Source: a phage. From it: DNA of 64,000 nt. A program made the translations under genes and the position numbers. The DNA lies in sequence record PZ179883.1, one strand, 5' to 3'. Below are positions 4,021 to 60,921 of the stretch, one piece after another (positions within the stretch are counted from its first letter, which is position 1; each line of letters begins with the position of its first letter). The notes beneath the pieces are model-generated. The model did no database searches. It had not been told where the DNA came from and was given only the letters and a program-made list of their open reading frames with translations.

Positions 4021-4207
4021 TATCTAAAATGTTGAAGTTAAAAGATACAGCCCAGTCAGTGCAGACCGTAACCTTTTTAATACAATTATCTTCAACCTTT
4101 AGCGGTTCAAACCAATATTCAATAATTTCTTTATGCCCAATATCATCTTTTACTTCGCATTCAAAATGCTGACTCATCATAACATTTTTAAATTCATCAA
4201 AAGTCAT
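3944..4207 (-). CDS. hypothetical protein (46.2-like position)
   Basis: 87 aa track ORF, stop overlaps gene 46-side ORF, start abuts gp47 stop. Confidence 0.45.
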   Translation of the reverse strand: MTFDEFKNVMMSQHFECEVKDDIGHKEIIEYWFEPLKVEDNCIKKVTVCTDWAVSFNFNILDNDTPKSLRDMAVSCIKDAYCEVFDI

Positions 4208-5223
4208 TGTGTTGCCTCTACATATAACTGATTTGCATATTGAATAAGTGCTTCGCGATCAGAATCAGTGATGTCTGGAATTGCATTAATGTATTCTTCC
4301 ATCAACGTCTGAAGAGATTGAACTTCCACTTCTTCGTTATCATCTGATTCGACAGAGTTATCAATCTTTGACACAACTCGTAATGAATGCACAACTTTTT
4401 CTAGTTCAGATTCGAACTTCGTTAGATTTTTGTCTACCTCAGTTACTATAACACGTACTGATAGATTTGTAAAATCTTTATAGTCAATTTTTCCCTTAAA
4501 TGGATATTGAATTCGACGATGCCAGGTAGTGTTGTTTGGAATAAATTCCATTCGTTCTGTTTCTGTATCAAACATCCAGAATCCACGAGGGTCATTCTCG
4601 TCACCTGCAGTTAGTGTCCATGGTGTCCCAATATATCTGACGTTAGCAGCCTCAGAGATAGTATGGAAGTGACCAGACCACACCTCTTTATAAGTCTTAA
4701 GGAAATCAGGTTCAAGACCGTGAGATTTCATTCCTTTATAAAAATAAAATCCATTCAGCTCCCAGTGACCGACACAAAAAGAAGCAGATGAAGTTTTGAT
4801 GTGTTCAAGAATTTCACCAGTATTTTCTTCACACATCCAAGGAATTAAATCAATCAAGCATCCGTCAAAATCTACTGTAGTAGGCTTATCATATACTTTA
4901 ACATTAGGATATTTAGCCAAAAGCTCAGTAGAAGCATTTGGATGCATTACATTTTTATAGTGGAGATCGTGATTTCCTACAATAGTATGTAATGTGATTC
5001 CAACGTCATCAAGCATTTGAACTATTTCACGAGCAAACTCCATAGTTTTATGCGTGATTGCTTTTCGCACATCAAAAATATCACCATATTGAATCCATGT
5101 AGTAATTCCATTTTTCTTAGAATATTCTATCGCTTGTTTAATTCCATCAATTTGAATACCGCGAATCCATTCATCATCAGCTTTAACGCCTAAATGCCAA
5201 TCACCTAAATTTAAAATTTTCAT
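4204..5223 (-). CDS. 47: recombination endonuclease subunit gp47 (Mre11/SbcD-like phosphoesterase)
   Basis: 339 aa; calcineurin-like motifs GDWHLG, GDIFD, GNHD; ATG 5221-5223 verified. Confidence 0.9.
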   Translation of the reverse strand: MKILNLGDWHLGVKADDEWIRGIQIDGIKQAIEYSKKNGITTWIQYGDIFDVRKAITHKTMEFAREIVQMLDDVGITLHTIVGNHDLHYKNVMHPNASTELLAKYPNVKVYDKPTTVDFDGCLIDLIPWMCEENTGEILEHIKTSSASFCVGHWELNGFYFYKGMKSHGLEPDFLKTYKEVWSGHFHTISEAANVRYIGTPWTLTAGDENDPRGFWMFDTETERMEFIPNNTTWHRRIQYPFKGKIDYKDFTNLSVRVIVTEVDKNLTKFESELEKVVHSLRVVSKIDNSVESDDNEEVEVQSLQTLMEEYINAIPDITDSDREALIQYANQLYVEATQ

Positions 5224-5360
5224 ATATCAAGAACCGTCGTTGAAATGCAAAATAAAATTATTGAAATAAATCCATCTGGAGTACTAAAGAACCCAATCCA
5301 ACACGCTCTGGTGAACAAATAAAACGCTAGAAAAAGTATCACATATCCAAGAAATATCAT
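5220..5360 (-). CDS. small hydrophobic peptide (46 aa), translationally coupled to gene 47
   Basis: ATG 5358-5360 preceded by GGAG; translation MIFLGYVILFLAFYLFTRACWIGFFSTPDGFISIILFCISTTVLDI; TGA overlaps gp47 ATG (ATGA); below track size cut-off. Confidence 0.4.
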   Translation of the reverse strand: MIFLGYVILFLAFYLFTRACWIGFFSTPDGFISIILFCISTTVLDI

Positions 5361-5383
5361 TATATCAAACTCCGTATAAAGCT

Positions 5384-5401
5384 AAAGGGCCGAAGCCCTT
5401 T
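5384..5401 (-). terminator. UUCG-tetraloop stem-loop at the a-gt stop codon
   Basis: Same AAAGGGC-UUCG-GCCCUUU element; weak U tract. Confidence 0.4.
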
Positions 5402-6602
5402 ATTTTGTAATAATGTCAAACTGTTCTTTAAAGCAGAAGCTTGAATCTTGGTGCTGATACAAAAATTCATAAGCTTTTTCACGTTCGCGGTCATAAAGAG
5501 CTCGGTCAGATGACAGTTCTTTAATACGTTCAAATGTTGATTCCATGTCATTTTCATCAAACCAAACGATACCGCTATCATGAGAAATTAATGGAGTATT
5601 ATCAACACGGAATTTTAAATTTTCGCCCGTAGATTTCCAAAATACCGGAATTGTTCCACATGCACCAAGCTCGAGATGAGTGTATTCTAAAGAACGCTGT
5701 AGATATTTTTTGTCCAACTTACTCAGCTGATAACCAAATCCGGATTTACTCATGCGTTCAAGCATTTCGCTATTTACATAACGGTCAAGAATTTGCGTTG
5801 GCAAATTAGGAGCAATTTTAATTTGGTCTACTTGATGAAGACGATAATACTCGTATGGAATTCCTTTTTCTTTAATAGGAATGAACGCTGGAGAACGTTC
5901 CAGACCTTCCATAATAGTACTTAGTCCTGCAGGTTTAAGATGTTTTTCATGAAAATCAAACATCTGATAAAAGCCTTTCCATGTAGTCGTACGACCAATC
6001 CAACGGTTGATATTCATGTTAATTTCAGAAACATCTTTCCAGTAGGTTGACCGAACCTTCGCAATATCCATAGGAGGCTGAAAGTTATATACGGTCGGCG
6101 CTTCTTCAATATCATCAAACAGAGAAACTGTTTCTGGATACCATTCTTTCATCAAAACTTTATTAAAGTCACCATTATCAGAATGGCTAAAAATAACATC
6201 AGCTCGACGAACAGTTTCTTCTAATCCCAAATTTCGGCGCAAAGAAAGAGAAGAATGGTCATGTTGATAAACTACAACACGAACCGAAGGTTTAATGTTA
6301 TCAATAATTTTTTTATAGTTATTAATAGTGTCTTCTTCAACCGAAGTAGCAGGAACTGAATTGATAATTAGAATATCACAATCATTTACCAGCTTAAGTG
6401 TTTTATCGTATTCTTTTGCCAATAAAACCGGAATTGAAAATGATTTATAATCATGCGCACAATTACGAGTAAATGATTTATCTTTAGCATAAACCAAAGT
6501 TACTTCATGACCATTTTTAATAAACCAATCACGCTGCTCAAGAGAAAATTTAGTTACACCGCAACCTTCAAGACCTCGAGCCATAAAAATACATACTTTC
6601 AT
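5400..6602 (-). CDS. a-gt: DNA alpha-glucosyltransferase
   Basis: 400 aa, same length and position as T4 alpha-gt; ATG verified. Confidence 0.8.
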   Translation of the reverse strand: MKVCIFMARGLEGCGVTKFSLEQRDWFIKNGHEVTLVYAKDKSFTRNCAHDYKSFSIPVLLAKEYDKTLKLVNDCDILIINSVPATSVEEDTINNYKKIIDNIKPSVRVVVYQHDHSSLSLRRNLGLEETVRRADVIFSHSDNGDFNKVLMKEWYPETVSLFDDIEEAPTVYNFQPPMDIAKVRSTYWKDVSEINMNINRWIGRTTTWKGFYQMFDFHEKHLKPAGLSTIMEGLERSPAFIPIKEKGIPYEYYRLHQVDQIKIAPNLPTQILDRYVNSEMLERMSKSGFGYQLSKLDKKYLQRSLEYTHLELGACGTIPVFWKSTGENLKFRVDNTPLISHDSGIVWFDENDMESTFERIKELSSDRALYDREREKAYEFLYQHQDSSFCFKEQFDIITK

Positions 6603-6652
6603 TTAATATCCTCTTTGTTTTGGTTTATTTTACCAAAAATTTATAAAGCAAT

Positions 6653-6672
6653 ATAGGAGCCGAAGCTCCTAT
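6653..6672 (-). terminator. UUCG-tetraloop stem-loop upstream of a-gt
   Basis: AUAGGAGC-UUCG-GCUCCUAU then U-rich. Confidence 0.45.
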
Positions 6673-35865: not shown

Positions 35866-36459
35866 TTATTTCAGAGAATTAATGTATTCCTGAACATCAG
35901 CAGAGGTAGTTTCAACCCCAGAAATATTACCGTTAAAGGTTTCAACTCGAGCAAGGGTATCTTCAATATCAACCTTAGTCAGTGCTGCAATTTCAACTAC
36001 ATCATCGGCAGTACTAATTCCAAGGGCATTTGCTGCACGAGTTTCACGGATATATTCCAATTTAACCGCAAGTTCTTGACGAGCATCATCTAACTCAACT
36101 ACTTTCTTGGCGATTTCAATTCGCATTTCAGCATAACCGTCAGCCTTAGTAGTCAACTGCTCAGCTGTTCGACGATATAGTAAACCGAGTTTAGCATGCA
36201 TTGTTACATCTTGGCCTTCGGAAAGAAGTTTACGAATTTCACGCTCTTTTGATTCGGCCTGTCGATTCTTTTCGATAACAAGTTCACGAATACGTTTTTC
36301 TTCGTTAATAGATTTAACAGAAGCAGTTTTTAGATCTTTAATTTTATCAAGTAGTTTTGCTGCTGCAGCAGTATACTGTTCTTCGACAGATAGATTTTTA
36401 GCCATAGCAGAACCAAGTTTAGTGCGAATAAACTCAACAATTTTCTTCAGTGTGTTCAT
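35866..36459 (-). CDS. long alpha-helical coiled-coil protein, PspA/IM30-like pattern (197 aa)
   Basis: ATG with AAGGAAA RBS; continuous charged heptad-like helices; PspA assignment is inferential. Confidence 0.4.
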
Positions 36460-36560
36460 AGTATTTCCTTAGGTTAATTGAGATTTAAAATCCGTAGGAG
36501 TATAATACTCTATCGTCAAATTATAGGCTCATAATATCTCAATCATGAGCCTGCGTAAAC

Positions 36561-36824
36561 TTATTTCATATTATTGAAATATTCTTCTGCGATTTCGTCG
36601 TTATCATGGTAAACTTTAGAAGACAGTTTAACATAACCTTCTGCTGTGAACATATTAATCACAACTTTTACAGTATACCACTGACCGTCTTCATTACCCA
36701 TTACTGCGTAAGTTTCAAACATCGGATGGTCAGGACCGATGACTTTAATATCATTCACTGTACGACCGAAATCTTCTGAAACGCATTTCATAAAGAAGTT
36801 GAACAGTTCGCCGTAATTATCCAT
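36561..36824 (-). CDS. hypothetical protein (87 aa)
   Basis: Track ORF trimmed to ATG 36822-36824 with GGAGAA RBS, downstream of early promoter. Confidence 0.5.
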   Translation of the reverse strand: MDNYGELFNFFMKCVSEDFGRTVNDIKVIGPDHPMFETYAVMGNEDGQWYTVKVVINMFTAEGYVKLSSKVYHDNDEIAEEYFNNMK

Positions 36825-37742: not shown

Positions 37743-38216
37743 TCATTTGATTTGTTTAGCAGACCAAATGCGGTCTTTAATAATTTTTTGGATGTCTTCA
37801 ACATACTCAAGAGAGTGAACATGTGGATTATCTTTGAAACTATAAGCACGGGCTAACTTTTGGCCTTCGGTTTTGATTACTAAAAGCTCTTTAAGGATAG
37901 CTTCATATTTAGCGATAATTCCTTTAACGATATTTTTTTCTTGTGCCGCTTTAGGATCTGCTTTAGGAGCAGGTTTACCCGAAGCCTTTGCAAAAGCAGC
38001 GCCAGTAGCAACTAAACTTTTCCAGGCCATACTAACTGCATTTCCCGTAAATCCTTCCGCTTTCATGTCGCGTGCAAACTGGAATCGCGATTCATCAGAA
38101 GCATCTTTATAGGAATATTTACCCGCGGCAATGGCAGCTTTTGCAACAGCTTGAATTTCGGTGCTAGATGCTTCATTTAACACCGCTTCATTTAAAAATT
38201 GAGTATATGATTTCAT
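37743..38216 (-). CDS. internal-protein-like gene with capsid targeting sequence (157 aa)
   Basis: ATG 38214-38216 with AGGAAA RBS gives MKSYTQFLNEAVLNEAS; track N-terminal extension overlaps the terminator. Confidence 0.6.
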   Translation of the reverse strand: MKSYTQFLNEAVLNEASSTEIQAVAKAAIAAGKYSYKDASDESRFQFARDMKAEGFTGNAVSMAWKSLVATGAAFAKASGKPAPKADPKAAQEKNIVKGIIAKYEAILKELLVIKTEGQKLARAYSFKDNPHVHSLEYVEDIQKIIKDRIWSAKQIK

Positions 38217-38253
38217 CTTATTTCCTGTTTTAATTTGTAGATTTAATATACTA

Positions 38254-38261
38254 ATATTTAT
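38254..38261 (-). promoter_or_regulatory. late promoter box TATAAATA upstream of internal-protein-like gene
   Basis: Minus-strand TATAAATA abutting terminator 38262-38291 and 38 nt upstream of ATG 38216. Confidence 0.5.
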
Positions 38262-38291
38262 ACCAAAAAGCCCCAACCTTTCGGTCGGGGC
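38262..38291 (-). terminator. intrinsic terminator, copy 2 of the 31-nt element
   Basis: Same hairpin plus U tract, at the downstream edge of the tRNA/small RNA region. Confidence 0.7.
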
Positions 38292-38342
38292 TAAGCCTTG
38301 CGGCAACCTTGTCGGGGTTCCACCTGCTAAGGCAAGTGTTTG

Positions 38343-38434
38343 TACGAAACGCCGGGATTCGAACCCGGTTATTAAGTAGTTGACGCTACTCAATATTTTT
38401 AAAAGGCCATATCTCGACCATATCCGAACGTTCC
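38343..38434 (-). ncRNA. tRNA-like small RNA candidate (perfect T-arm, 7 bp acceptor-like helix, non-canonical core)
   Basis: CCGGG-TTCGAAT-CCCGG T-arm at 38351-38367; 38344-38350 pairs with 38428-38434 (one G-U); no canonical anticodon arm; lies between CDS 38600-38950 and a terminator. Confidence 0.35.
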
Positions 38435-38599
38435 GTCAAAAACGCTACTCGGCTTACGGCAAAGATATTTCCTCGAATCGATAATTCGGTGCGCCGTTTC
38501 TGCTGTGATAGTAAAGAGCCAGAACACAGTAAAACTGTGGGAGGAAACTATACTCCAGGGAACATCAGTCCGACGACTTACCGGTAGCGACCCGGTTTC

Positions 38600-38950
38600 T
38601 TAATATTCTTTTAAAGAATCAATATATTCACGGCGTTTACGCCACAAATCAATTGCTTCATACGCGGATTCAGCATTTCGAATTAGCCGGCATTTATGTA
38701 AAGACTTATGATTTTGATATTGTGTAGATAACGGAATTGTATCTAAAAGGTCTTTACGATCAAAATATTCGTAACCATCTAAACCAAATGAACGATTTTT
38801 GAGAAATTGCCAATGACCATATTCGTTTTCGACATAAACATAATCTGCATGCTGATAAAGCAAATTAATTACACGTTCAGAAATAACAGTATCATTATGA
38901 TTAAAATAGAATGTTAAATCATGAACTACTAAATAAACATTACCTTTCAT
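38600..38950 (-). CDS. hypothetical protein (116 aa) embedded in tRNA/small RNA region
   Basis: ATG 38948-38950 with GAGGAAAA RBS, 17 nt downstream of tRNA-Arg. Confidence 0.55.
   Translation of the reverse strand: MKGNVYLVVHDLTFYFNHNDTVISERVINLLYQHADYVYVENEYGHWQFLKNRSFGLDGYEYFDRKDLLDTIPLSTQYQNHKSLHKCRLIRNAESAYEAIDLWRKRREYIDSLKEY

Positions 38951-59454: not shown

Positions 59455-60921
<1,467 letters not shown>

Follow-up and report, generated by a model that had tools for sequence, protein, structure and literature searches.

Termination-reinitiation at AUGA overlaps between adjoining cistrons is widely described for phage and bacterial operons. In T4, an overlap of this type joins gene 47 to gene 47.1, which lies between a-gt and gene 47 and is listed in the reference genome (NC_000866) as T4p058 / NP_813808.1 at 36444..36584, a "hypothetical predicted membrane protein"; the gene is also named in T2 and belongs to the PHROG 6693 family. 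The T4 47.1 transcript is classed as early (PMC9697503 Table S2). The T4 transposon screen HIDEN-SEQ scores 47.1 as Non-essential, with 10 of its 12 TA sites hit, and genes 47 (3/75) and 46 (2/149) as Essential (bioRxiv 10.1101/2025.11.20.689424), while in the knock-down screen CRISPRi-ART, guides directed to the 47.1 start are rated 'Not Fit' and those to gene 47 'Semi-Fit' (PMC11879866). Here we describe the orthologue of 47.1 in a phage DNA of 64,000 nucleotides (nt) (record PZ179883.1; this whole stretch is called the window). As a discovery it is minor, since the name, the PHROG family and two genome-wide T4 screens in which the gene is dispensable already exist. We consider 47.1 very likely to be an accessory coding gene of T-even-like phages, whose product would be an early inner-membrane protein with a specific partner.

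The coding sequence (CDS) of 47.1 occupies 5220..5360 on the minus strand of the window. The ATG at 5360-5358 begins an open reading frame (ORF) of 46 codons plus TGA, with the product MIFLGYVILFLAFYLFTRACWIGFFSTPDGFISIILFCISTTVLDI (ORF listing), orthologous to T4 T4p058 / NP_813808.1. A preliminary description had placed an ATG at 5358-5360 behind a GGAG ribosome-binding site, followed by 46 hydrophobic codons and a TGA overlapping the gene 47 ATG; the ORF listing and the sequence agree exactly with these coordinates. The Shine-Dalgarno (SD) sequence GGAG, read from the sequence at 5370..5373 (minus strand), stands 9 nt from the ATG, and its place is taken in other clades by GAGGAG, GAGAGG or GGGGTGA. 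At the 3' end, the 47.1 stop TGA (5222-5220) and the gene 47 start ATG (5223-5221) share the ATGA at 5220..5223 (minus strand), an overlap that is conserved wherever gene 47 directly follows. Gene 47 itself (4204..5223, minus strand), the downstream cistron, encodes a Mre11/SbcD-like nuclease subunit of 339 amino acids (aa). The 176-nt gap between a-gt and gene 47 is occupied by 47.1 and is otherwise empty on the coding strand. The location between these two genes, the SD, the upstream hairpin and the ATGA overlap are all as in T4, and the 90 nt upstream of 47.1 are identical in the two phages.

The size of the frame alone is unremarkable, since the window holds 98 ATG-ORFs of 40-60 aa; its grand average of hydropathy (GRAVY), 1.68, is the highest among them. 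The runner-up by this measure (1.63) is a 43-aa ATG-ORF at 60153-60284 (minus strand). The peptide matches PHROG 6693 from end to end (E = 2.2e-30, residues 1-46 against profile positions 2-47 of 47). It is identical at 45/46 residues to T4 NP_813808.1 and T2 BBC14675.1, with which synteny is shared, and many Tequatrovirus genomes match the surrounding region at 96-98% identity. Eight nucleotides in the CDS differ from T4, seven of them synonymously and one producing M41T (ATG to ACG). This threonine (codon 41, 5238-5240, minus strand) is absent from all of the ~600 database copies, for which the best identity is 97.8%; in other clades the same position, in helix 2 of the predicted structure, is M, I or F.

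By tblastn, the frame is found in 604 phage records, full length in 602 of them, with peptide identity down to 61%. Among 13 distinct DNA versions, the variable columns fall 21, 16 and 37 times at codon positions 1, 2 and 3. The Nei-Gojobori ratio of non-synonymous to synonymous substitution rates (dN/dS) is 0.03-0.39 in the 47.1 frame and ~0.55-3.7 in the shifted frames, where 19/22 pair values exceed 0.9; between clades dS is above 1 and saturated, making those ratios approximate. In close pairs, where dS is unsaturated, the ratios of synonymous to non-synonymous changes are 9:1, 7:1 and 6:1, for which binomial P lies between 1e-5 and 6e-4; tests of the synonymous excess give P = 1e-5 to 1e-3. 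T4-like phages use AGT/AGC for Ser26 where the others use TCT/TCC, and Arg18 is AGA or CGA. Constraint is strong in a core at codons 18-33 (RACWIGFFSTPDGFIS, 5262..5309, minus strand), which covers the end of helix 1, an interfacial stretch and the STPDG turn, and which is nearly invariant as RACW[IV]GFFSTPDGFIS, with dN of 0.05-0.10 against dS of 0.7-2.2. Across 18 distinct peptides from four genera, A19, C20, W21, G23, F24, F25, T27, P28, G30, I32 and S33 do not vary. The preliminary description had allowed that the frame might prove unconserved in related phages, with a synonymous-site pattern unlike that of coding DNA; instead, the frame is kept and the changes in it are overwhelmingly synonymous. 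Judging from the sequences, it is practically certain that the window frame is a genuine coding gene and the orthologue of T4 47.1.

The gene is nevertheless missing from much of the public annotation. In a spread sample of 49 records, a separate 47.1 CDS is clear in only 11 and at least 26 list gene 47 alone; only unambiguous rows were counted, since the label 'hypothetical protein' sometimes denotes gene 47 too. The description of the frame as unannotated thus holds for most records and fails for T4 and T2, where it is annotated as 47.1. In the records of VR5 (Dhakavirus, L034:1195-1338) and KP179 (Jiaodavirus, L033:1198-1341), the orthologue lies in what is shown as an empty gap of ~200 nt, and the same is true of an unannotated orthologue in UoN_LG358_1 (Gelderlandvirus, L032:1192-1335). 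Given the strong purifying selection across four genera, routine annotation of 47.1 is warranted, as most deposited T-even-like genomes omit it.

The ~600 records with 47.1 belong to Tequatrovirus and to parts of Dhakavirus, Jiaodavirus and Gelderlandvirus (Tevenvirinae), compared with 1,992 phage records that contain gp47 homologues. The gene is carried by essentially all records with gp47 at 95% identity or above, by a minority at 60-90%, and by none below 60%. Its neighbourhood was compared in 28 IMG/VR loci with gp47 at 61-99% identity, together with GenBank loci (L numbers denote individual loci). There are three sequence types, namely the T4-like type of 46 aa, a Dhakavirus-like type beginning MELFLGY... 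and a type beginning MITYLG... (Gelderlandvirus), in addition to a Jiaodavirus version. The upstream neighbour differs by clade (a-gt in T4-like phages, an a-gt.2 homologue in the Dhakavirus type, and an ORF of ~110 aa in the third clade). In all 47.1-bearing loci where gene 47 follows, 47.1 is the cistron immediately 5' of it and the ATGA is kept. The exceptions are a few phages, some Tequatroviruses among them, in which a homing-endonuclease gene is inserted between the two. In phage a51 (L002:1278-1901), the inserted endonuclease starts at an ATG overlapping the 47.1 TGA, so that it takes over the coupled start, and its own 3' end supplies a new start for gene 47. The inserted gene is annotated as HNH, and its N-terminus (YITYLTIYSG...PFYIGST) gives a borderline Pfam score for GIY-YIG (21.4 bits, cut-off 22.6). 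At two other loci (L024:1897-2514 and L027:1749-2504), an endonuclease homologue stands in place of 47.1.

Comparison of near-identical phages with and without the gene shows at least three independent, precise losses of 47.1. Relative to L014 (2361-2504) and L021, the loci L018 and L019 (~2501) have an exact 141-nt deletion that extends from the 47.1 ATG up to that of gene 47, with the result that gene 47 inherits the GAGGAG of 47.1. KP179 (in the interval given above) differs from L017 (~2501) by another exact 141-nt ATG-to-ATG indel, lying between TATATG repeats; these two exact indels are bounded by TATG or TATATG repeats. In the third case, L020 (2361-2504) against L016 (~2501), ~157 nt between ATAT repeats are gone and AGGT is left before gene 47. 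All 47.1-negative phages have a canonical SD (GAGG, GGAG or AGGT) 6-10 nt before gene 47, whereas all 47.1-positive phages with gene 47 directly after have only ACGG (-14 to -11 in the window). Between paired phages with and without 47.1, gp47 is 94-97.6% identical. The locus provides a clean natural example of selection on operon structure, in which deletions keep the essential gene 47 behind a working ribosome-binding site. One of these phages, L014, is itself a mosaic, its 47.1 being 98% identical to that of the Dhakavirus-type L021 and its gp47 97% identical to that of L018 and only 73% to that of L021, a mismatch that implies recombination with its breakpoint in or close to the ATGA.

As to the protein, a single transmembrane-like helix had been proposed at the outset. 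Hydropathy and AlphaFold2 indicate instead two hydrophobic segments (residues ~2-17 and 31-44) with a conserved turn between them. Kyte-Doolittle means over 15 residues are 2.5-2.6 in the N-terminal segment and 2.1-2.3 in the C-terminal one, with a trough of 0.2 (residues ~16-32), and AlphaFold2 places helices at 2-19, 21-24 and 28-45 and a turn at 25-27, with a mean predicted local distance difference test score (pLDDT) of 77 from an 8-sequence alignment. The only charged residues are R18, D29 and D45, and the C-terminus reads ...TTVLDI. On these models, gp47.1 is likely to form a helix-turn-helix hairpin predicted to insert into the membrane. The sole basic residue, R/K18, is found where helix 1 ends; under the positive-inside rule, the conserved connecting segment most likely faces the cytoplasm, and both termini are predicted to be periplasmic.

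A possible course of events can be proposed from these features. Made early, from readthrough transcripts and probably also from a MotA-type promoter just upstream, gp47.1 would take up a two-helix hairpin form in the inner membrane, leaving its R-A-C-W-I/V-G-F-F-S-T-P-D-G segment to contact a specific host or phage partner. Ribosomes that reach the end of 47.1 would be able to resume at the gene 47 AUG that overlaps its stop, raising the output of a cistron whose SD is poor but which could also initiate by itself. The likeliest role would be a niche-dependent host interaction, for example the modulation of a membrane-associated host factor or defence, with gp47.1 expected to be dispensable on laboratory E. 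coli K-12. Purifying selection, dispensability in the laboratory, patchy distribution and recurrent loss are typical of accessory host-interaction genes, and for this reason we give a partner-specific role of this kind a chance only a little short of even, the benefit being expected in particular ecological settings only. The ACW-GFF-TP-G loop motif offers a sharp handle for a partner search.

The T4-like upstream neighbour, a-gt (5400..6602, minus strand), encodes an alpha-glucosyltransferase of 400 aa; beyond it, T4 has the homing-endonuclease gene mobB (37885-38679) between a-gt and a-gt.2, whereas the window (6603-6668) is without mobB, an arrangement shared with T2. A stem-loop, UAAAGGGC-UUCG-GCCCUUUA (5383..5402, minus strand), with an 8-bp stem and a 4-nt loop, begins at the a-gt stop codon and lies 9 nt before the 47.1 SD. 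Its sequence is the same in T4, some records label it 'terminator', and other clades have analogous GC-rich hairpins ahead of a promoter-like motif. Read on the gene strand, the next letters are AGCUUUAUA, a poor U-tract; the hairpin could act as a partial terminator, or could stabilise a transcript at its 5' or 3' end. Within the 3' end of a-gt lies a candidate MotA-type middle promoter (5410..5435, minus strand), a pattern match consisting of TGCTTTA (5435-5429), 13 nt, and CATTAT (5415-5410). In 17 non-T4-like loci, the pattern TGCTT[TC]N, N10-14, TAnnnT, which has a background rate of 0.03 per 130 nt, precedes whichever cistron comes first, be it 47.1, gene 47 or the inserted endonuclease, and the weaker CATTAT form is found in the window and in 8 T4-like loci. 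In most loci a -10-like element thus stands 11-13 nt after a MotA-box-like TGCTTTA; outside the T4-like clade this -10 is canonical (TAAAAT, TATAAT or TACAAT).

Several observations weigh against the reading of 47.1 as an early, partner-specific membrane protein, besides the approximate between-clade ratios mentioned above. A T4 proteome study did not detect gp47.1, although it lists no protein identifier for it, so that the peptide was maybe unsearchable there (PMC9697503 Table S2). We found no ribosome-profiling study of T4 in the literature. The candidate promoter is a match to a pattern, and its -10 (CATTAT) is weak and non-canonical in the window's clade. The helices, of ~16-18 residues, are short for membrane spans, and both insertion and topology are predictions, made from an AlphaFold2 alignment of just 8 sequences. 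No match to gp47.1 was found in Pfam or NCBIfam; a profile search of PDB gave a best hit of E = 1.2, which is meaningless, and Foldseek against BFVD returned nothing below E = 6. When 1.84 billion cluster representatives were searched with a profile, one genuine cluster (P0004) was recovered. A second hit in this search, the repetitive 943-aa protein P0008, is treated as spurious, as it matches profile positions 17-24 only, in 12 stretches. The motif has no paralogue elsewhere in the window, and by these comparisons gp47.1 belongs to an orphan family restricted to T-even-like phages. In addition, 47.1 is not named among the conditionally essential genes in the HIDEN-SEQ main text, and the one condition table consulted shows no effect (log2 fold change 0.01, p = 0.99; bioRxiv 10.1101/2025.11.20.689424).

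A more specific partner would be the nuclease encoded next door. Made first from the shared message, gp47.1 could tether the gp46/gp47 (Rad50/Mre11-like) complex at the inner membrane and recruit or restrain it there, with co-translation securing assembly. The constant position of 47.1 beside gene 47, whatever lies upstream, fits this proposal, as does a conserved loop that is probably cytoplasmic. Were it correct, it could explain a 1981 report whose title refers to a membrane-associated DNase under the control of genes 46 and 47, and the lineages without 47.1 would have dispensed with such control. The natural variants speak for independence of the two proteins, however. Three losses of 47.1 left gp47 at 94-97.6% identity, and L014 combines a Dhakavirus-type 47.1 with an L018-type gp47, mismatched ancestries which imply that the two do not co-evolve. 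Moreover, ~70% of gp47-bearing phages are without 47.1, and T4 requires genes 46 and 47 but not 47.1. We therefore regard a nuclease partner as improbable. An alternative of equal standing is that the invariant, probably cytoplasmic loop may neutralise a membrane-bound host defence effector.

About as improbable is a toxin or holin-like role, in which the small membrane peptide would depolarise or permeabilise the host membrane non-specifically. The preliminary description had pointed out that small membrane peptides of phages often act as toxins or regulators; the analysis yielded nothing that speaks for or against either role directly. With fewer than 50 aa, a GRAVY of 1.68 and an early transcript in T4, gp47.1 has the general appearance of such a peptide, and according to a review that is silent on 47.1, cloning many of the small early genes of T4 is lethal to the host (PMC6071114). 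Constraint on gp47.1, however, falls mainly on the turn and the interfacial segment, and the helices vary freely among hydrophobic residues. That the turn and not the helices is most conserved suggests specific contact rather than bulk membrane damage. The peptide also has no charged C-terminal tail, its neighbour is a recombination nuclease and not a lysis cassette, and we found no toxicity data for 47.1 in the literature. A partner-specific accessory protein remains the reading that we prefer.

The ORF might, on the other hand, serve as a pure leader cistron, which loads ribosomes onto the SD-poor gene 47 through the AUGA and whose peptide is functionless. The arrangement of the locus suits this idea well, since the ATGA overlap is invariant, gene 47 has ACGG where 47.1 is present and GAGG, GGAG or AGGT where it is absent, and an SD before gene 47 is restored in every natural deletion. 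A leader, however, merely needs to be translated, yet the amino-acid sequence of 47.1 is strongly constrained (dN/dS ~0.1 and 16 invariant positions in four genera, with synonymous sites saturated). Transposon disruption of 47.1 is tolerated despite the essential gene 47 downstream, and knock-down at the 47.1 start is without phenotype, unlike that of gene 47. The gene 47 initiation region, moreover, is rich in A/U and folds no better than shuffled sequence does (z = +1.4), which leaves nothing to unmask, leads us to reject a structure that hides the gene 47 start until 47.1 translation opens it, and suggests that gene 47 may recruit ribosomes unaided. A functionless leader is accordingly very improbable, more so than either a nuclease tether or a toxin.

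Coupling as such is a separate matter. The preliminary description held 47.1 to be translationally coupled to gene 47; the overlap and the weak gene 47 SD are in favour of this, and the T4 transposon and knock-down data are against obligatory dependence. The HIDEN-SEQ transposon is without a terminator, and its mean read count is 142 in 47.1 against 224-232 in 46.1 and 46.2 (bioRxiv 10.1101/2025.11.20.689424), a lower value that is compatible with a mild coupling effect. The TA sites at CDS positions 135 and 137 of 47.1 fall within the gene 47 initiation region, and we predict that these are the two unhit sites. With 47.1 dispensable and gene 47 essential in the T4 screens, and the start region unstructured, coupling would be at most a quantitative boost: strict coupling is unlikely, and a contribution that gene 47 does not require is somewhat more likely than not.

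Finally, a chance ORF in an AT-rich spacer, conserved solely through regulatory DNA signals for gene 47, would suit a short frame that most genome records leave unannotated and whose protein is undetected, but it is effectively refuted by the excess of variable third codon positions, a dN/dS far below 1 in the 47.1 frame alone, an intact frame in ~600 genomes at peptide identities down to 61%, and the switch between serine codon families.

Among better-known small membrane proteins, type I toxins of the Hok and TisB class are similar to 47.1 in length and hydrophobicity. They consist of one helix with a polar tail, whereas 47.1 has two hydrophobic segments and a conserved turn, and the class hallmark, one transmembrane helix followed by a polar or charged tail, is not seen in 47.1. 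The gene also opens a nuclease operon and is not part of a toxin-antitoxin locus. Class II holins and pinholins have two transmembrane domains, which can be compared with the predicted two-helix hairpin of gp47.1. In contrast to these proteins, gp47.1 has 46 aa, no charged C-terminal domain and an early transcript in T4, and its gene is flanked by a-gt and gene 47, with no endolysin or spanin adjoining; the late lysis-cassette expression and charged C-terminal domain of holins are thus both lacking. In the organisation of the locus, 47.1 and gene 47 resemble coupled cistron pairs, with which they share a 4-nt stop/start overlap and a downstream gene weakly equipped with an SD, and natural loss of the upstream ORF leaves a canonical SD at gene 47. 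They differ from plain coupled pairs in that the upstream peptide is itself under selection.

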